From assembly GCA_040285745.1 (NCBI GenBank), contig JAUFOR010000003.1, positions 868,001 to 932,000 of the forward strand: a DNA stretch of 64,000 nt. Reading direction: 5' to 3'. The stretch is from Barthelona sp. PCE (Eukaryota). The position numbers and the translations under genes were made by a program. Under the pieces are notes generated by a model. That model had not been told where the DNA came from and did no database searches. It was given only the letters and a program-made list of their open reading frames with translations. Positions 5,342 through 45,689 of this stretch are shown here, one piece after another. Position 1 is the stretch's first letter. Every line of letters starts with the position of its first letter.

Positions 5342-6094
5342 TTAACTCTCATCCTTTGGCTCAGGCTCAGCATCATCAACATTCGACTGCCTCTTCCTCA
5401 TAACATAAACATAAAAATAGGAAGATGGATTAGACGGATCATCTGTGGCGAGGGCCTTGGGGATCGTCTTGGTCTCTGTTGTCCAGTTTAAGCCATGACG
5501 AGAGAAGTGATCCAGTCGGGAATCAGGTGTTCCATAAGAAATGCAAATAAAGACGCCACCGGGCTTCAGGACACGCTGGACCTCCTTGTTCATGAGGTAG
5601 GCATTGTCAAATGACTCACGTCCACATAATAATGCATCCAGAGTAGCTTTATCGACTACAACATCGAAACTCTCGTCATCGAATGTCATGCGGCGGGTAT
5701 CCATCACCTGGAAAGTAAGCTCAGGCTGATCAGCATACTTTTGCTGCATCTGATGAACCACAGTTTCTGAGATATCAATGTTTGTAACGTTTTTGTAGCC
5801 GTCATCATATAGTTGTGTTGCCATACGGGAGTTACCACATCCCACATGCAGAATTTTTGAGCCTGAGGACAAATAAGGTCTCAAAATATCTGCGCAGTTG
5901 ACTAAAGTGCAATACCAGTCAAAATTGGAACTAGAATCCTTCTGATAACGCTAAATGTAAGTAGATGTATAAGAATAATACTTTAGATGTCGTTCATTGC
6001 GAAGAAATTTGAACATAACTCACAAAATGAACGCATCCATACTAACTATAAGACATACTTCCTCCCAATAAGCAGGTTTTCCGTACTCTGGCAT
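5342..6094 (-). CDS. METTL13/EEF1AKMT4-like class I SAM methyltransferase; exons 6094-6059 and 5950-5342
   Basis: Spliced N-terminus MPEYGKPAYWEE|RYQKDSSSNFDWY restores the family YW..RY/FDWY motif; VGCGNS, DKATLDAL, LKPGG. Confidence 0.88.
5951..6058 (-). other. Spliceosomal intron, 108 nt, with internal hairpin
   Basis: GTATGT...TACTTAC-ATTTAG; removal joins conserved coding motifs in frame. Confidence 0.9.
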
Positions 6095-17229: not shown

Positions 17230-19095
17230 ATGCCCAGACGAATTATTTTTAATGAACATGCTCACAAAGATTATGAAAATTCTGAGTTTTGTGTATCTGA
17301 AGTGAAGAATCATTTTACACTGATCAAAAACCCACAGCCTGCATCATTTATTAATTGCAACCAGTTTATTTTGTTCCAAAAGTCATCTTATCCAATAGAA
17401 TTTGGTGAATTTCAAGGAAAGAAAAAGATACACAGGTGTTGGCAAGATACTACAACTTACAATTCTCTTTTAAATCTCCGCTACAAGCCTGAATGCATCA
17501 TACCACCTCTCAAAAATGGTGACAGATGGCGTCACAACATTTGGTTCATGGAGTTTCCATCATTGTAGATAACCAACAACATAACTTTAACCTTTCCAAC
17601 AGATGAGATTTACTGCCTTTCGAGATCTTCCTTTTTATTCGTGATATTCAGTAAGAATACCATTATTAAGAGAGTTTATGAAAGCAACTACTCGTCATAC
17701 ACTGAGTTTGATCTTACTGAGCTCATTAATCATCCCGTTGACTTCTACTGGACGGATTCCCCTGTTGAATCTTTCATCCCTGGTGGTGTAGCGCTTTCAG
17801 GGGGCATTTTTTTTTTCAACGACGCAAGATTTATTCCTTGTGATGAGGTGCTTTCTTGCTGCGCAAACATAACTGCTGCTATCGTACGTAACAGGGTGTG
17901 TGAGGAGGAGGTTACGTATCTGTACACAGAGTACGATGCGTTGCCTTTCGTAACAGACAAAATCATTCCTTCCCGAGTTGCTTTACTTTTTGCAACAGAA
18001 GGACTCTCCAAGTTTACATTCATGTCGGCAAAGAAATATGCCAATATGATACTAACTGACAATGGAACTACCAATAGTATTGGTGAGATTCCACCAAGCA
18101 TGGACTACATCTGCTGCGAGTTATCTTTTCCTTTTGAATACAGTAGCCGTTTGTACTCGTTTGACAATTTGTCATTCAAGACATTTATTCCTAAATCAAA
18201 GGAAGACGTACTGATGATGCTGCCCAAGTATCAATCCCCTCTTTTTTTCAATGATCATACAATTTTTTTCTCATCAAGAATGACGAAATCATGGCCTACT
18301 TTATTTCTGCTTGACGTAAATGAGATACATGTGTTTCCTAATATTAATTCACAAGACACAATTATCAAGATTGACCCCTGTCAGTGTTTCAGTGCAAGTT
18401 ATCGTTTCGCAATAGTTGGCACCAATAATATCAACCAACAGGTACTTGTTTCTGATAGAAATACTGAAATTACTGATATAGTGTCTGAATCCGATAACTA
18501 TGATAGTGAGAACACGCATCATATAATTAAAAAGCATAATAGATCGTTTTTGTTGAACAACATTGAATATCACACTGCAGACGAGATTATAAACTTCACA
18601 TTCTCAGGAGATTACCTGTTTGTGACACTTTATGATTACACAACCAATGTTTATTATATTTCAAATGGCACACCAGAATTGATCAAGAACATTGATTCGG
18701 AGTTGTCGTTTAATCGTTGGGACCCACATGTAGCATATGATGTAACAACTCGTGAGTTGGTACTCTTTGACAGTGATTTTAATCGTATTTCAAGTTTTAC
18801 TTCTCCATCTCCTGTGGCAAGTAGTACTTTTTCTGGACCTCGTTCTTTTTTTTACAGGAAAGAAGTCTATCATTGTGATTTTGAAAATGGTATATTACAA
18901 TCGGTTCCGCACTCTTCATTTAGAGAATTTTATTCAGATGTTTTTTACCAAACTAATATTAGGAACGAAAAAATGATTATTAAGAAATTTAATGCTACAT
19001 CATTTGATGATGTTGAGATAGAAGAGTTTGATATACTCAAATTTATTCATACTGCCAATATAATTCACTTTCCTGATGTTTGGGATGGTAAGTAA
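17230..19095 (+). CDS. Hypothetical ~620 aa beta-rich protein interrupted by a single in-frame TAG at 17566-17568 (pseudogene, readthrough or atypical intron)
   Basis: ORFs 17230-17568 and 17641-19095 are in the same frame with only one stop between them. Confidence 0.6.
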
Positions 19096-22186: not shown

Positions 22187-22373
22187 AAATATCAGATAAG
22201 GTAAGGTAAAAATCAGTAAACCGCAATTGTGACTTCACAGGGGCTGAGTTCTCTCGGATACATGCATGTTTACTGACAGATATCTAGTTGGATGGCGTGA
22301 ATAAGTTCCTAAGCTCGAGGTCGGGTAATTGAGTTCCCACCCCATAAAAAATAGTAAAAAAGAGAAATCCGGA

Positions 22374-22775
22374 ATGTACGATAAAGGGCGTAATTCGGAC
22401 AGCACATTCATGAGTCACAGATTCACTCTGCCATGAGTTCCGTCAACCACATGCTTCCATCATTCAACAATAACTTCTCATTGAAAAATGCTTACGGTTC
22501 TCATTTTTAACCACATTGAATCTATTAAAATGTCATGAATCGTAAAATAAGTAAAGTTATTAAAAAAAAAAAAATTCTTTTTTGAAGAGCCCTTATTCAT
22601 TGCAGAATACCACCGAGACAACAGACAATCGTTTGAGAATTCAACAGAGTGGATAAGATTCAGCGTGCGCTTGCAAGGCTCAGAAACAATAGTTAAAAAT
22701 TGCTAGTTGTGCTTCATAAAGTACAATTTACTGGAGGATGCCAAAAATGAGTTTATTACGACTGTTAAAGCTTGA
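22374..22775 (+). pseudogene. Possible decayed Ras-superfamily small GTPase fragment
   Basis: One frame reads YHRDNRQSFENSTEWIR...KNC*LCFIKYNLLED, resembling YD.T.R.SFE.v..W and the G4 region; several stops; no intact P-loop. Confidence 0.3.
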
Positions 22776-23491
22776 AAGTTTAACTAAAAAGTCTATAAAA
22801 ACAACAGATATAGAGAAAAATAAATATTCATTTTAATCCCTGTATTGGCTATAATAATCAATTCTATGATGAGGTTAATGGTAAAGGATCCCTTACAGAT
22901 GTATGGAAAATGAATACAAAATAGAAACATTGTTTTTTCAATGTATCTTAACAAAATTAATAATCAGCCCCTGTTTGAAAGAATTAAACACTATGAAATA
23001 TATAATTAAGTACTATATCAAAGCTCTTTACCATACAATAATGCTAAAAAAGGATATCACACAAAAAATTCTCACTTAGTATCTGAGGTAAATGTGTGTT
23101 GTATATAACATTAATCCATATATTTATGCCCCCTAAACATATTATAAAAACGTAAAACTGATAATACTGTAAATAGTAAAAAATTGCTCTTCGCAAAATA
23201 ACCATAGCTTCTTAAAACCATCTGTACAATGTTAATACTCCAAATACAATACATTTATCATAGAAAAAAGTAAATTATAAAGAGTGAACAGATGAAAAAA
23301 AATATTAATATGTTAAATTTAAAATCTCTTTTTTTTAAATTATTAATAGACTATATCACACCATAAAAACATCGCTTATGTGTTTAAAATATCATTACAT
23401 CCATAAAGAAAAAAGACATAATTGAGAATTTCGTGAATATTAATTTAAAGGCTTAAATTTTACATTCCTTAATTTCTGCTTTAGTCAAAGC

Positions 23492-23563
23492 GTCCCAATG
23501 GTGTAGTGGTATCTCGTTCCCTTAGGGTGGGAAAGGTCCTGGGTTCAATTCCCAGTTGGGACC
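23492..23563 (+). tRNA. tRNA-Pro (AGG)
   Basis: Acceptor GTCCCAA/TTGGGAC, anticodon arm TTCCC-TTAGGGT-GGGAA, T arm CTGGG-TTCAATT-CCCAG, C discriminator, downstream T-run. Confidence 0.92.
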
Positions 23564-23652
23564 AACTAACAATTTTTGAACTTGCAATTTTAAAGAACAT
23601 TTTAGACAAAGACAATGAACATTCACGAGAACATTTCTGTAATTCGGTATCA

Positions 23653-23724
23653 GACCCTATAGTATAATGGTCAGAACCACGGCCTCCAAAGCCGTAGATC
23701 TAGGTTCGATTCCTAGTGGGGTCA
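23653..23724 (+). tRNA. tRNA-Trp (CCA)
   Basis: Acceptor GACCCTA/TGGGGTC, anticodon arm ACGGC-CTCCAAA-GCCGT, T arm CTAGG-TTCGATT-CCTAG, downstream T-run. Confidence 0.92.
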
Positions 23725-23920
23725 AAAGTACCGAATTCGCATTTTTTATTCACAATATTTTTCAAATAAATTAATCCACAATTCTTTGTTATTTCACTGA
23801 ATTACACTCGTAAAAAAGAGTAAAAATTGTTTGCATGTCGTATAATTTTTAAAATTTTTTACTACTACTCTATCTAAGCTAATGAGGTATGAATATGGAG
23901 TAACAACTGTTTAAATTCAT

Positions 23921-25359: not shown

Positions 25360-27642
25360 TTAGAAGATCTGACTGAAGCCCTCGTTGTCGAGCTCACCTT
25401 CATATTCAAGGTACTTGATAAATTCATCGTACTCATTCAGAAGAATTGCGTTGAACTTAGCATGTACATTCTTCCATAGATCAGCAGTCTCAGGAATCCC
25501 TTCAGGGATTCTGCAAAGAATGGGGCCAACTAGAACAGACATGGAGTCCAGACTCATGGAGTTCTTCTCCTTGTGCAAGTCAACCTGTTTGAGCAAAGAA
25601 AAATAGCAGCTGACAATGGTTCTTGAGAGCTCATTCTCGACCAGACCTTCATATTCATGAGTACCAGGTTCATAATTGAGTAAGGCCTCGATGTTGACAA
25701 AACCGTTTGGTTCTGAACGGAGGAGATGGTGGATCATATTAGACACGTAGATGGGATCAATTTCTTCGTTCAAAGGAAGAGAGAGACACTCCAACTGGGG
25801 AATCATCGAGTCGCGGTGCGTATTGACGATCGATGACCTGAAGATCATTGATTTCTCCATTCCGTTACGGTACATCCAGCCGCACAGCTTATCGAACAAG
25901 ACAGGAACATCGTTGGGATTGAGAGGCCAGTGCTCGGCCGGAACAAAATAGTGCGGAACTTGAGCTAGCGGGAGTTCGAAGGTTTCTTCAACGTGGAATT
26001 TGCCTGCAATGGCATCATTTGCAGGAAGATACTCAAGAGGTAGACCCAGGCCGTCTGGGAGGACAGAGAAATCTGAGGTGTTTGATATCTGTGTGTACTT
26101 CTCCCAGAACTTGCGAGAAACAAAAGGACGTGAGACGGTGAGCACGAAACGGGTCCAGAGGGAAGGGTTGACGCAGTACAGTTTCTTGATCATCTTCCTC
26201 GTCCTTCTGTTTAGCTTGGAGTAAAAGGATCTAAATTCTCCAAAGGATAAGCTCGTGGATTGACCAGCTGTTGAATTAAAGAAGAGAACGACGTAGGGGT
26301 GCTTGCTGAGGACAAAAAACTGACGGATAAGAAGATTGAAGAAATCTGCAGCAGAGCATCGAACTCGGGGACCAAGAATAACCAAAACGGGTAATCCTTC
26401 TTCAGTGTACCCGCCCATATAACATGCCAGTAGGTTCTGAGCTGGTTTAACGTCAGAACGGAGAGAGTTCATGAGGGCAGCCTCGAACTCTTGCTCGGTT
26501 TCATCGTTCATATACAGCTCGTCCTCAAAACGGCGTTCGCTTAACGGAGAAACGACCTCGTCAAGGGTGAACTCGCGTTGACGAGTCATAACAGGAGTTC
26601 CAATGCCGGCCGCATCAGGAAGAAGGGGAGTGGTGATAGCTTCCTCAATAAGCTCATTATCAATGGTTTCCTCGATATCTTCAACTGGCTCCTCAATAAC
26701 AATAGGCTCAGCAACTGGCTCTGGTTCAGGTTCTTCGACAACCTCCTCAACAACTGGCTCGGGTTCAGGTTCTTCGACAACCTCCTCAACAACTGGCTCT
26801 GGTTCAGGTTCTTCGACAACCTCCTCAACAACTGGCTCGGGTTCAGGTTCTTCGACAACCTCCTCAGCAACTGGCTCGGGTTCAGGTTCTTCGACAACCT
26901 CCTCAACAACTGGCTCGGGTTCAGGTTCTTCGACAACCTCCTCAGCAACTGGCTCTGGTTCAGGTTCTTCAACAACCTCCTCAACAACTGGCTCGGGTTC
27001 AGGTTCTTCAACAACCTCCTCAACAACTGGCTCGGGTTCAGGTTCTTCGACAACCTCCTCAGCAACTGGCTCTGGTTCAGGTTCTTCAACAACCTCCTCA
27101 ACAACTGGCTCGGGTTCAGGTTCTTCGACAACCTCCTCAACAACTGGCTCGGGTTCAGGTTCTTCGACAACCTCCTCAACAACTGGCTCGGGTTCAGGTT
27201 CTTCGACAACCTCCTCAACAACTGGCTCGGGTTCAGGTTCTTCAACAACCTCCTCAACAACTTCTGGGGCAGACTCTTCAGTTTGCTCCTCAGACTCAGA
27301 TATAGGGACGGTTTCAACCTCAGATTGCTCTTGAGTTTCAGTGACATTCACTTCTTCTTTTTGAGGTGCTTCTTCAACATTTTGCTGAATTTCGACCTCA
27401 ACAGCTTCAACCTCAGCCTTAGCGGAAGCTTCAGCTTCAGAGTTAACCTCAACAGGTGTTTCAACAGTTTCCTCACCAACTACAGGTTCTTCAACGGCTA
27501 CATCAGGAGTATTGTTCTGATTTTGACCATTCATGTTATTGTTACGGTTGTTGCGCTTATTTTTCTTATTCTTGTTTCTGTTTCTGTTATTTTTACGACC
27601 TAAGTATTAGAAATTTCCACGATGTGATGTAAAAATACCCAT
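25360..27642 (-). CDS. BCH/CRAL-TRIO + RhoGAP protein with acidic tandem repeat; exons 27642-27639 and 27599-25360
   Basis: Spliced start MGRKNNRN...; [21 protein letters not shown] (BCH); [28 protein letters not shown] (RhoGAP). Confidence 0.8.
26708..27262. repeat. Coding minisatellite, 39-nt unit x14 encoding (V/A)[12 protein letters not shown]
   Basis: Near-identical tandem copies of ctcaacaactggctcgggttcaggttcttcgacaacctc. Confidence 0.95.
27600..27638 (-). other. Spliceosomal intron, 39 nt
   Basis: ATGG|GTATTT...TTCTAAT-ACTTAG|GT CGT; joins ATG to the otherwise start-less upstream extension of the RhoGAP frame. Confidence 0.8.
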
Positions 27643-27900
27643 TTTAACTATCTAATAATGCTCAATACGAGAAAAGGGAAGTTATTTTTATAACGTCACG
27701 ATTTTCTCGTATTGTATGGATGCAGTTGGATGAATGGACCATTTGTCGTGATTAATCACCTTTGATCCATTTGAATAATAGCGCAACCACTTGTACATAA
27801 ACATGCACTTGTGAAATACACAAGTTTTTTATTGCAATACAAATTTATCGTTTAGGCTTAAACGCGACATAAATTTGTTGGTTCAAAAGCAAAAGTCCAT

Positions 27901-28812: not shown

Positions 28813-29530
28813 ATAGAAATGAGATATTAATAATAAAACAACGATTTATTGACTTCCATTTATCACAGAGTGCTTTAGTTGGTGTGTATGGTAGATTATT
28901 GTACTGTGAAAGTTATAGAGTAGCGTAACAAAAAATTAAGAATAAAGTAGGATTCATACTAATTATTTACGTTCCGTCGTTACTGGAACGCTCATCATGA
29001 TCAGATAAAGGTAAGTAATCACGATCCCATTAAGAACCAAATCCTCTATAAAGAGGTATATTGGTCAATAGCAGATTGAAAGCTGACAATATACAACTCG
29101 TACTGTCATCATGCAACTATTCTTGCAGATTTATATCAATAGAGTAAGTATCATCCGACATTGTTCTCATTTTGTAGTTATTAGAAATTCTGTGTTGTTA
29201 GTTTAAATTTTGAGTATTTTAGGGTATAAACGCATAACACATGGTAGAATATACAAGAAAAACAGAATATCTATCACACCTAAAGGTATCAAAGTTGGTT
29301 GTTTTGAATATTGAAGTTTGTGCTATTTCATGCTATTTTTTTGGGTAAAGGATTCAATGCATCTTTAGAACCATCATAAGAGGATCATTTGGACGGAAAG
29401 CAGACCAATTGGTACGAACGTTTGTTTTCTTGTTTGTAAATGTGTTTTTATATGTTTTCTACCTAATTCCACCTATACAAAGCTACCATATAGCCTCTGC
29501 AGTATATGGGAACAAGCTAAGCTAGTAAAT

Positions 29531-29542
29531 TACTTCCTTTTT
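29531..29542 (+). promoter_or_regulatory. TCT/TOP-like pyrimidine tract upstream of RPS27
   Basis: TACTTCCTTTTT, identical 12-mer upstream of RPS15A. Confidence 0.45.
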
Positions 29543-29567
29543 TTTTTATAACGTCGATATCATCACT

Positions 29568-29850
29568 ATGAACACTGATCTTCTTCATCCTGATGCCGTT
29601 AGCGAGGCTAACACTCACAAGCTCAAGCGTTTGGTGCCCACTCCTAACTCCGTCTTCTTGGATGCCAAGTGTGCTTCTTGTGGTACTATGTATGTTCTTT
29701 TACATTTTAGGGGCTCTAACCTTTAGTAACTGCGTCTTCTCACACGCTACTACCACCATTCACTGCCAACAATGTCAAGCTCTCATCTGTACTCCTACTG
29801 GTGGCCGTTCTGAGTTTGCTAAGAACGTCGCTTGCCGTCAGCGTAACTAG
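29568..29850 (+). CDS. RPS27: 40S ribosomal protein S27 (eS27); exons 29568-29689 and 29727-29850
   Basis: MNTDLLHP...HKLKRLVPTPNSVFLDAKCASC...VFSHATT..C..C...CTPTGG after splicing. Confidence 0.95.
29690..29726 (+). other. Spliceosomal intron, 37 nt
   Basis: GTATGT...CTCTAAC-CTTTAG; required to keep the eS27 frame. Confidence 0.93.
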
Positions 29851-39486: not shown

Positions 39487-39661
39487 ATTAAAATTTCAAA
39501 GGAGGGAAATGGAGAAATTTTGTGAAAACGGTTTCATATTCTTTTTCACGCACTGTTGTTCGTTGTAGTGGATGCACCACCGTGTACATGTCTGCTCTGT
39601 CCAAGTAAATTATGTTGAACTATCTCCCCCTTCTTTATTCTTTTTTACATTTTTTCTAAAG

Positions 39662-39981
39662 GTATGGTTGATTTTCCTCATAGTTCATCTGTTTTTACAT
39701 GCGCATTAGACTCAAATATATGTACAATAAGCTTAAAACGTTTTGTTTCGTAGAGGTTTCATTAAAACTATGTTTCTAACCGAGATAGCAGTATTTAATG
39801 CAAGCATAGCACACAGTCAAGTGGTTAGTGTCACACACGCGTGGCATTTTTGCACCATATGCAAAGCATGTAGATTTTGTCATTTACTTGCGATTCTTAC
39901 AGTTTTTGCATTGTTACACAGTATATAATGAGCTGCATCTAAACAGAAATGGGGGTACACGTTGTGTTTACTAACATTAAG
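39662..39981 (+). other. Putative 5'-UTR intron of RPL21, 320 nt, highly structured
   Basis: AAG|GTATGG after a pyrimidine tract; TACTAAC-ATTAAG 7 nt before the ATG; long-range complementarity between its ends. Confidence 0.65.
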
Positions 39982-39988
39982 CTTCAAA

Positions 39989-40468
39989 ATGGCTAAAAAT
40001 CACGGTAAGAGATCCAACACTCGCAAGAAGTTCAAGAAGGATTTTCGTAAGAGCGGTATGCCTACTCTGACGAAGTATCTCACCAACTACAAGATTGGTC
40101 AGTTCGTCGATATCGTTGTCGATCCCGCCATTCACAAGGGTATGCCCTACAAGTACTACTGTGGCAGAACCGGACGTATTTGGGATATCACTCCTCGTGC
40201 CGTTGGTGTCATTCTCTCCAAGCGCGTTGGTGGTCGTATCATGAACAAGAAGCTTCATGTTCGTGTCGAGCACATTCGCCCCAGTCGTTGCCGTGCCGCT
40301 TTCGTCGAGCAGTGCAAGGTTTCCGATGCTCTTAAGGCTGAGGCCAAGACCGAAGGTCGTATCATCTCCACCAAGCGTTTACCTGCTCAGCCTAAGAAGG
40401 CTCAGGTTGTCAAGTTCGATGGTGTTGTCGATGTCGTCGCCCCTGTTGAGTACGTTGAGTTGTACTAA
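39989..40468 (+). CDS. RPL21: 60S ribosomal protein L21 (eL21)
   Basis: MAKNHGKRSNTR...YKIGQFVDI...HKGMPYKYYCGRTGRI...KKLHVRVEHIRPSRC. Confidence 0.96.
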   Translation: MAKNHGKRSNTRKKFKKDFRKSGMPTLTKYLTNYKIGQFVDIVVDPAIHKGMPYKYYCGRTGRIWDITPRAVGVILSKRVGGRIMNKKLHVRVEHIRPSRCRAAFVEQCKVSDALKAEAKTEGRIISTKRLPAQPKKAQVVKFDGVVDVVAPVEYVELY

Positions 40469-40633: not shown

Positions 40634-42135
40634 ATGCCCATTAAGGTATAGTTTTTAATTGGGTGACATGTTCTAACATTTAGGCACCTCATCGTTTAAG
40701 CACAAGCGGATTTGGCAGGGATCGCACGCAAAATGGTAACGTTAGCTATTCTGTTCCTTATAGCCCTTCAGTTGTACGCAGAAAAGAATCCACAGTCACA
40801 AAGATCGCCCGTGAGGTGCTTGATAAGCGTGAAGCTTTAACCTCTATTCAAAATGCAGTCGCGCCCAATGGACAAATGTCATCTACCCAATTCAGAAGTG
40901 CTTTGAGGACATCAGGCGTCGACCTCACCACATTAGCTATTGATAGAGCTGTGAATTATGCCTCACAAAATGGTGTTGTTGATTTGCCTGCTTTCATGCA
41001 CAAACTTGAGGAAGCAGATATTTGTACCGTCCCTGAGCGCATTCGCAGGGAGGCTCAAGTTACATCACTACCTGATGAGAATACCGTGTCTTCTTTTAAT
41101 GTCAAACATGACCCCAAATCACGTGTTCTTGAAAGATTGCGTGACAAGGTTTACTTTAACAACTCAAAGCTCAGTGAAGCGTTCATGGATATGGATGATG
41201 ATGGAGATCACTACATCTCGCGAGTGGAGATGAAGCAGCACCTAAATCAATTACTTGCTCCTGCACCGGAGGAGGACGCAGCAGTGGACAGCATCATAAA
41301 CGATCTTTGCACCGAGAACAAGGAAATAGTTAAGTTCAACGATTTTGCAAAGGTTATCGAACCTCCGTATCTCAGCAGCCCCGTCATTGGTTACAACCCT
41401 AGGGAACCAGTTGAAACCCGCCCCGTCGCACCCCGTGCACAGTATAAGCGCGATGACTTCGGAAGAATCAATGTAATGAGGAACAGACATGTACACCGCT
41501 CACTGAGTTCAGAGCTCCTGGATTTAAATAATCCTACGAGCATCGCACACTCCTTCGAGGCACTTGACAGCGGTAAAGGCAGTGTTTCAGAAGGCGAATT
41601 CAAGCAGGCACTGAGCGCTCTCGGTGTTCGCAACCTTTCCGGTCACATGGCTATTGCTCGTGATGTTGCCCAGCTTGATAGTGGGTACTTTGACTACAAG
41701 CGCTATCTGAATCACATCGGAGCGGCAACAGGTATTGAGAGCGTCATACCAGCCAGCTCTCGTGTCAGTCGCCCTCCACGTGCTCTTCAGGATCACGGCC
41801 CTCTGCTGCAGCCCAAGGATCCCTCCCCGATCAAGAATCCCTCCAGGATCTTAGAGTCGCAGGTGGATGATATTATTCAGCAAAAGATTCCACCGGTCCC
41901 TATTCCTGCACCACAGACCGCATATGCATCTCCTCGCCCCGAGTGGATGAGTTGGTCGAACCCTGACGATTACACACACCCACAACAGCCTAAATCGACA
42001 AAGAAGCGACGAGTGTCTTCTGCCTATGACTCATCCAGCATTTCAAGCGTATTGACCACAGAGCCCGCTGAAATACCGCAATATACACCGCGTAGACGAT
42101 CGTTTAGACCAAAAGACACACTTACTCTTTATTAG
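40634..42135 (+). CDS. EF-hand protein; exons 40634-40645 and 40684-42135
   Basis: DMDDDGDHYISRVE and LDSGKGSVSEGEF EF-hand-like loops; spliced start MPIK|APHRL in frame. Confidence 0.75.
40646..40683 (+). other. Spliceosomal intron, 38 nt
   Basis: GTATAG...TTCTAAC-ATTTAG; supplies ATG to the downstream ORF in frame. Confidence 0.85.
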
Positions 42136-45252: not shown

Positions 45253-45264
45253 TACTTCCTTTTT
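45253..45264 (+). promoter_or_regulatory. TCT/TOP-like pyrimidine tract upstream of RPS15A
   Basis: TACTTCCTTTTT, identical to 29531-29542. Confidence 0.45.
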
Positions 45265-45296
45265 CGTTTTTAACTTCTTTGTGATAGAGAAAACTA

Positions 45297-45689
45297 ATGG
45301 TTAGAATTAACACCCTCAACGACGCTCTGAACGCCATCGTCACCGCCGAAAGAAACGGCCGTCCCCAGGTTCTCATCCGTCCTGCCTCTAAGATCATCAT
45401 CCGCTTCCTTCGCGTCATGCAGAAGCACGGTTACATTGGTGACTTCGAGTTCATTGATGATCACCGCTCTGGTAAGATTGTTATCAACTTGCTTGGTCAC
45501 ATCAACAAGGCTGCCGTCATTTCTCCCCGTTTCGACGTCAAGGTCGCTGATATCGAGAAGTGGGTTGTCAACCTCCTCCCTTCCCGTCAGTTCGGTTACC
45601 TTGTTCTGTCTACTTCTCAAGGTATTATGGATCACATCGAGGCTCGTCACCGTCACCTTGGTGGTAAGATCCTTGGTTACTTTGCTTAA
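45297..45689 (+). CDS. RPS15A: 40S ribosomal protein S15a (uS8)
   Basis: [11 protein letters not shown]...[32 protein letters not shown]...LLPSRQFG...GGKILGYF. Confidence 0.97.

Follow-up and report, generated by a model that had tools for sequence, protein, structure and literature searches.

A candidate 320-nt leader intron of RPL21 in Barthelona sp. PCE, with a predicted closing stem that would leave short-intron spacing

The region upstream of the RPL21 gene of Barthelona sp. PCE raises the question of whether a long intron lies in the leader of this gene, and whether its interior is folded so that the splice sites come to the spacing of a short intron. The analysed window is a stretch of 64,000 nt (assembly GCA_040285745.1, contig JAUFOR010000003.1, positions 868,001 to 932,000), and all positions given here are those of the window. 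The RPL21e coding sequence is located on the plus strand at 39989-40468 and matches Pfam PF01157 (Ribosomal_L21e) over profile positions 1-101 of 101, with an E-value of 7.8e-42. The candidate 5' UTR intron is 320 nt long (39662-39981, +), starts with GTATGG, and ends with ACTAACATTAAG. Its candidate 5' splice site, at 39662-39667 (+), is the sole GTATG of the intergenic region. The fused branch-point/3' splice-site motif ACTAACATTAAG (39970-39981, +) reads ACTAAC-ATTA-AG, has the branch motif at N4 spacing from the AG and a predicted branch A at 39974, and ends 7 nt before the ATG at 39989. The putative exon 2 (39982..40468, +) would consist of the 7-nt leader CTTCAAA and the RPL21e coding sequence. 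The GT...AG boundaries and the extended 5' splice site are as in four other introns of the window. An earlier note on this DNA had described the intron, and its coordinates (GTATGG, the inverted-repeat pairs, the flanks, the 3' end, and GTATAT at 39921) were all exact when checked against the sequence.

The window holds about 36 genes in 64 kb, with 32-48% G+C in 2-kb windows, long uninterrupted ORFs, standard stop codons, and few introns. Stop codons are not standard in Spironucleus, unlike those of the window. The RPL21 protein has at most 58% identity to any other protein in a protein search. The LeuRS is about 50% identical to those of animals, plants, amoebae, and assorted protists alike, and the kinesin motor has identity of at most about 40%. 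From these comparisons, the organism looks phylogenetically isolated. The kinesin and LeuRS searches, like an Atlas look-up of an orphan protein, gave no signal for placing the lineage. Close relatives that could be used for covariation of the stem were found neither in the RPL21 protein search (above 58% identity) nor in a scan of metagenome contigs.

Of the other introns, the RPS27 intron (29690-29726, +) is 37 nt long and is supported by homology, as exon 2 matches the Ribosomal_S27e profile positions 18-50 from its own residue 2. The EF-hand gene intron (40646-40683, +, 38 nt, after codon 4, ATGCCCATTAAG) and the RhoGAP/CRAL-TRIO gene intron (27600-27638, -, 39 nt, after ATGG) are predicted from the motif and ORF continuity; both ORFs stay open upstream of any in-frame ATG. 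These 37-, 38-, and 39-nt introns have CTAAC/CTAAT-N4-AG ends and are situated at or near the gene 5' end, two of them after only 1-4 codons. Together with the intron of a methyltransferase gene, they start with GTATGT, GTATAG, GTATTT, and GTATGT, so that all five introns, RPL21 included, begin with GTAT. The predicted branch A and the 3' end are 7 nt apart, the distance also given by the ACTAACACACAG motif of Giardia and Trichomonas. On these signals, 39662-39981 is assigned as a probable member of the U2-type spliceosomal introns with fused branch point/3' splice site.

The pattern WCTWAYMYTWAG, which was drawn up with RPL21 included, has five matches in 128 kb (both strands of the window) versus 0.42 expected. 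All five are intron 3' ends, and five matches were reached in 0 of 100 shuffles. When the pattern is taken from the other four introns (T at -3), RPL21 differs by one mismatch (A at -3). Six sites differ by one mismatch, RPL21 among them, and the chance expectation is 6.75 matches in total. As this is about the chance number, the RPL21 3' motif draws its weight from where it stops, 7 nt short of the ATG; by our own estimate, a strict branch/3' splice-site motif is found there by chance in about 0.1-0.2% of genes. Eleven other ORFs were found to have no further intron with the motif at the 5' end. A palindrome CTAATGGTTAG (45294-45305) holds the start codon of RPS15A (uS8) and resembles the branch/3' splice motif whichever strand is read. 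The coding sequence there (45297-45689, Pfam Ribosomal_S8) is intact, and an intron is unnecessary.

The promoter layout points to the same reading of the RPL21 leader. A pyrimidine-rich tract that begins with CTCCCCCTTCTTTATTCTTTTTT (39619..39657, +) is the presumed core promoter and TSS region, and the putative exon 1 ends at 39661. It is preceded by the promoter-like motif AGTAAATTA (39604..39612, +), which is common to the region upstream of RPS27 (29524-29532). This motif has three matches in the window versus 0.59 expected, and two of them are directly upstream of the RPS27 and RPL21 pyrimidine tracts. The tract criterion was Y14>=12 within 70 nt upstream of the ATG, applied to 22 genes hand-picked for a clear ATG start, and such a tract is present in 15 of the 22 comparison genes. 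With the ATG as anchor, RPL21 scores 9/14, which ties with the lowest of the 22; with the 5' splice site as anchor, it reaches 14/14, and the perfect tract is 39 nt upstream of that site. The tract 39619-39657 is the only stretch with Y14>=12 downstream of 39534 in the intergenic region 39487-39988, and the upstream regions of RPS27, RPS15A, and RPL21 align once RPL21 is anchored at the 5' splice site. Nine ATGs are present between 39662 and 39988. An unspliced leader from the 39619-39657 promoter would carry many upstream ATGs, whereas a spliced leader would be free of them because all nine lie inside the candidate intron.

It is rather unlikely that there is no 320-nt intron, with the RPL21 promoter near the ATG and the ACTAAC...AG fortuitous, or that only a 61-nt intron is used, starting at the proximal 5' splice site GTATAT (39921..39926, +). 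A promoter close to the ATG could be indicated by the TATA-like CAGTATATAA at 39919-39928, inside the candidate intron and overlapping GTATAT. The sequence CAGTATAT, a part of the TATA-like TATATAA, is found at 39919-39926 (+) and 29500-29507 (+), which is 70 and 68 nt upstream of the ATGs of RPL21 and RPS27, respectively; it has four matches in the window versus 1.22 expected and could be a coincidence or a second promoter element near the ATG. In addition, GTAT at 39921 fits the loose 5' splice-site consensus GTATNN, the stretch 39956-39988 is without an upstream ATG, and a divergent intergenic region of 500 nt is within the range of the window (about 65-500 nt in the ORF table). The absence of a pyrimidine tract within 70 nt of the RPL21 ATG, the module of AGTAAATTA and pyrimidine tract upstream of 39662, and the rarity by chance of a strict motif so placed before the ATG speak against this explanation, however. 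The 61-nt intron lacks a stable stem (MFE -4.5) and would break the 37-39 nt pattern, and GTATAT at 39921 is mostly paired in the predicted ensemble (mean unpaired probability 0.14). A 27-nt alternative intron from GTACAC at 39955 was also rejected, as it is too short, without GTAT, and below every other intron of the window. A 320-nt intron in the RPL21 leader is hence the best reading of the motifs and promoter layout, as the earlier note had proposed, and is rather likely on these features, with the junction 39661/39982 a predicted one.

For the closing of this intron, four helices had been proposed, all between segments of the plus strand. Helix 1 pairs TCCTCAT (39675-81) with ATGGGGG (39949-55) in 7 bp, two of them G.U, and helix 2 pairs TCTGTTT (39688-94) with AAACAGA (39941-47), also in 7 bp. 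Helix 3 is formed by ATGC (39699-702) and GCAT (39935-38), and helix 4 would be formed by CATTA (39704-08) and TAATG (39926-30). Helices 1-3 are supported by folding and are already present in the unconstrained MFE fold of the intron. They make up the predicted closing (zipper) stem, with its 5' arm at 39675..39702 (+, pair probabilities 0.5-1.0) and its 3' arm, also predicted by folding, at 39935..39955 (+). In constrained folds, the splice signals were kept single-stranded, with 6 nt for the 5' splice site and 12 nt for the branch/3' motif; pair probabilities were then 0.5-0.96 in helix 1, 0.72-1.0 in helix 2, and 0.88-0.99 in helix 3. Helix 4 had a probability of about 0.01 and was dropped, as other pairs take its place. 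In the unconstrained fold of the pre-mRNA (39640-40060), most pairs of helix 1 had values near 0.6, and helices 2 and 3 had values of 0.70-0.97 and 0.86-0.96, respectively.

Flanks were measured, as in the earlier note and in published work, as the nucleotides left at either end beyond the outermost reliable intron-spanning pair. The flanks of 13 and 26 nt given there were reproduced: they were 13+26=39 or 14+27=41 nt in all 24 constrained settings (temperatures of 20, 30, and 37 C, four thresholds from 0.3 to 0.9, and two constraint widths), and 13+26 at p>=0.5. With the splice signals unconstrained, helix 1 was partly displaced and the robust flanks were 26+34 in 6 of 12 settings. The constrained flank sum of 39-41 nt compares with 37, 38, and 39 nt of the short introns.

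By its strength, the RPL21 stem is mostly not more than chance. The MFE of the whole intron has a z-score of -0.55, and 27 of 100 shuffles were as stable. The constrained MFE is -68.5 kcal/mol versus -63.4 +/- 4.3 in shuffles and -69.3 +/- 14 in random 320-nt segments of the window. The duplex between the 5' and 3' parts (first and last 60 free nt) has -22.7 kcal/mol versus -17.4 +/- 4.5, and 11.2% of 1000 shuffles had a duplex as strong. The exterior loop of the MFE structure has 28 unpaired nt, with 46% of shuffles at or below the native value, and the ensemble-median effective length is 32, with 56% of shuffles at or below it. Effective lengths of 33-45 nt were found in 35-43% of shuffles, and the median exterior loop with shuffled interiors was 29-31 nt. 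These length measures are the same as in shuffles, which agrees with the general closeness of RNA ends described in the available part of PMC3017586. The flank sum is suggestive and more favourable to a ruler than the measures of strength. Among 300 shuffles, 4% had a sum of 36-42 nt; of 300 random 320-nt genomic segments, 19 lay in this range and 10 had a sum of 38-40 nt.

These controls bear on the explanation that the 320-nt intron exists and is removed by splicing, with a merely incidental closing stem, the ends of any 300-nt RNA folding close together and the 39 nt being a coincidence. General theory is in line with it, as the ends of folded RNAs lie close whatever the sequence (Yoffe et al. 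2011, PMC3017586; Lai et al. 2018, PMC6193969; both as far as the accessible text goes). So are the ordinary overall folding energy of the intron, the behaviour of the shuffled interiors, and the frequency of equally strong duplexes among them. The closeness-of-ends rule, as available in these sources, fits the shuffles of a 320-nt RNA but leaves the value of 39-41 nt, its robustness, and the burial of the cryptic 5' splice site unpredicted. The flank sum of 39-41 nt occurs in only 4-6% of controls and is stable over the 24 constrained settings, and the pattern has been published for other lineages having introns whose branch point is fused to the 3' splice site (PMC6679479, in the part available). 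An incidental stem is unlikely, though it has to be weighed seriously.

The second intron brought forward for a ruler is that of the methyltransferase gene (5951..6058, -, 108 nt), the only other long intron of the window and unlike the RPL21 intron in sequence. It follows a 12-codon exon 1 and runs as GTATGT...ACTTACATTTAG. The human homologue of solved structure, PDB 2pxx, aligns from its residue 19 to residue 6 of exon 2, so that about 13 residues are needed upstream of exon 2. The YWEE|RY junction is one that we take to be typical of the family. The insert is essentially one long imperfect hairpin, and its core stem is clearly non-random: the fold has a z-score of -3.26 (1 of 200 shuffles), and the duplex has -22.4 versus -10.5 +/- 2.8 (1 of 1000 shuffles). 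This non-random stem stands against the incidental explanation, whereas the weakness of the second '39' stands in its favour. Flanks of 14+25 were reproduced at 37 C and p>=0.5, where they depend on weak A-U pairing beyond the core stem. Other settings gave 8+17, 9+18, 19+33, and 20+34, and the unconstrained fold gave 0+16 with the 5' splice site paired. The flank sum thus ranged from 16 to 54 with threshold, temperature, and constraint. As the RPL21 value is robust and the methyltransferase value one of several, the claim that two introns converge on 39 nt was overstated. The structural ruler itself, as put forward in the earlier note, is compatible with 39-41 nt in RPL21 versus 37-39 nt in the short introns, a geometry reached by chance in 4-6% of controls; three of the measures do not separate the intron from shuffles, and the methyltransferase value depends on the setting.

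As for the origin of both long introns, a hairpin-forming segment, such as a small inverted-repeat element, could have been inserted into an ancestral intron of about 39 nt. This is possible because deletion of 39675-39955 yields 39 nt that carry the usual signals of a short intron. Under such an origin, the flank sum of 39 would be a relic of history, and an insertion would be tolerated only if it folds out of the way. The hairpin nature of the methyltransferase insert would fit, as would interiors with no other function found. Neither interior has a second copy in the 64-kb window, however, and the two introns are dissimilar; no target-site duplication was seen at the stem borders, and the RPL21 arms are broken by internal loops rather than being clean terminal repeats. 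An insertion origin is compatible with the preferred reading, but quite improbable.

The preferred reading, that 39662-39981 is a U2-type leader intron of RPL21 with a stem that loops out the interior to short-intron spacing, is given a probability of about 0.5. According to it, transcription of RPL21 would start in or just after the pyrimidine tract 39619-39657, and a very short non-coding exon 1 ending at 39661 would be joined to CTTCAAA-ATG at 39982. Helices 1-3 (39675-39702 with 39935-39955) would loop out about 280 nt and leave 13 nt plus 26 nt, which is short-intron spacing, and the fold would bury the cryptic GTATAT at 39921. The stem would then be required for splicing of RPL21. Within this, the ruler reading of the intron is plausible and weakly supported by the window.

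Structured long cis-introns are known from Giardia (Rpl7a), Spironucleus vortens (Rps15, Rpl7a, Rpl30, and Rps4), and Trichomonas vaginalis (PMC6679479, citing Roy et al. 2012; here and below according to the available part of that paper). In Giardia, Spironucleus, and Trichomonas, the long introns can pair internally and leave 35-45, about 41, and 25-44 nt, respectively, between the splice sites, which matches the short introns (Giardia, 35-45 nt; S. vortens, 40-42 nt; T. vaginalis, about 25 nt). The Rps15 gene of S. vortens has a 5' UTR intron verified by RACE, with an exon 1 of 12 nt, a precedent for the reading of the RPL21 leader, and long introns have been proposed to fragment into trans-spliced halves (PMC6679479). 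Rpl21 has no occurrence in that paper.

The window resembles these diplomonads and parabasalids in being intron-poor, in having uniformly short introns with a fused branch point/3' splice site at a fixed distance, and in having ribosomal-protein genes as hosts. Also similar are the predicted internal pairing, which would cut the long-intron distance to short-intron length, and the candidate 5' UTR intron with its putative, very short exon 1. It differs in that its short class is 37-39 nt and in that the looped-out part of the predicted RPL21 intron, of about 280 nt, is multibranched and far longer than the stem-loops of Spironucleus. The ruler idea, with 5' UTR introns and a route to split introns, is already in print for Giardia, Spironucleus, and Trichomonas (PMC6679479). 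The earlier reading of RPL21, in which such introns were seen as precursors of split introns, thus arrives independently at a hypothesis that had been published. What is new is probably one more example, from a lineage whose relatives have not been sampled.

Zipper stems of yeast, as in RPS17B, offer a second comparison (PMC2536676 and PMC12350175, both in the parts available). The RPL21 intron is like them in being a long intron of a ribosomal-protein gene with a GTATG... 5' splice site and a (T)ACTAAC branch motif, in having a stem that would shorten the distance from the 5' splice site to the branch, and in having structure around cryptic splice sites. Unlike in yeast zipper stems, the distances in RPL21 are 13 nt and 18 nt (39955 to the branch A at 39974), about 31 nt in total, which is tighter than the yeast A complex was modelled to allow in the consulted part of PMC12350175. 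The RPL21 stem falls outside the zipper-stem definition of that part of the paper, whereas its 13-nt distance to the 5' splice site is within what the definition gives for this distance. Yeast, unlike the host of RPL21, has no class of 37-39 nt introns and no fixed spacing from the branch point to the 3' splice site in these sources. By analogy, the RPL21 stem may act like a zipper stem on a tighter scale.

A stronger statement would be that a hard splice-site ruler of about 38 nt exists in this lineage, either evolved or kept from an early ancestor, and independent of the sampled diplomonads and parabasalids. This is doubtful, even if worth keeping in view. If it were true, long introns would survive only with a stem that removes the excess length, structural rulers would be a general end-state of spliceosome reduction, and the genome would be suited to finding cis introns that are becoming split. 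The intron itself, if true, would correct the RPL21 gene model, which would gain a non-coding exon 1 of very small size. Annotators of the genome could use the length class of 37-39 nt and the strict 3' motif, WCTWAYMYTWAG following GTAT. The locus opens no new question, and the window alone gives modest statistics.

The looped-out interior of the RPL21 intron (39703..39934, +) has only short ORFs, none of them credible, and no function was found for it. It has no repeat copy elsewhere in the 64-kb window. An Rfam scan of 39487-40000 by E-value gave a single match at chance level (E 0.85, 17 bits versus a gathering score of 48), and TGATGA and CTGA boxes were not seen by eye in the intron sequence. 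The reading as an intron that hosts a snoRNA or another ncRNA is not supported, as no recognisable RNA gene was found in the Rfam scan, though the intron may hold a lineage-specific snoRNA.

Several further promoter-like elements were observed in the window. A pyrimidine tract is located 15-45 nt before the ATG in most genes, and an AATAAAT-like box was seen by eye 15-30 nt further upstream in many of them, for example, GAATAAATCG in RPS15A, GAATAAATAG in the ThiF gene, and CAATAAATCG in the 303-aa gene. Tract and box together suggest a simple two-part core promoter. The 11-mer ACTTCCTTTTT is found exactly only twice in the window, at 29532-29542 and 45254-45264 (+), which is 37 and 43 nt upstream of the start codons of RPS27 and RPS15A, respectively. 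This 11-mer probably represents a core-promoter element or one of ribosomal-protein genes; copies with one mismatch are located before the RhoGAP gene (27672-27682) and before the ORF at 17641. The third copy of AGTAAATTA is at 23269, within the ORF-free stretch 22190-23920. This stretch of about 1.7 kb is without protein-coding ORFs and carries tRNA-Pro(AGG) at 23492-23563 and tRNA-Trp(CCA) at 23653-23724.

The ORF 17569-19095 (+) has 151 open codons ahead of the first ATG at 18022, and a promoter-like TCTTCCTTTTT is present at 17626. Between the 303-aa gene (-) and RPS27 (+), 750 nt (28813-29567) are without an evident gene, which is unusually long here, and ACTAACAACACAG is located there on the minus strand (29202-29190). 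Among the products encoded in the window are also a UFM1 E3 ligase, a beta-amylase (GH14), a deoxynucleoside kinase, TAPT1, PGAP1, and Mpp10.
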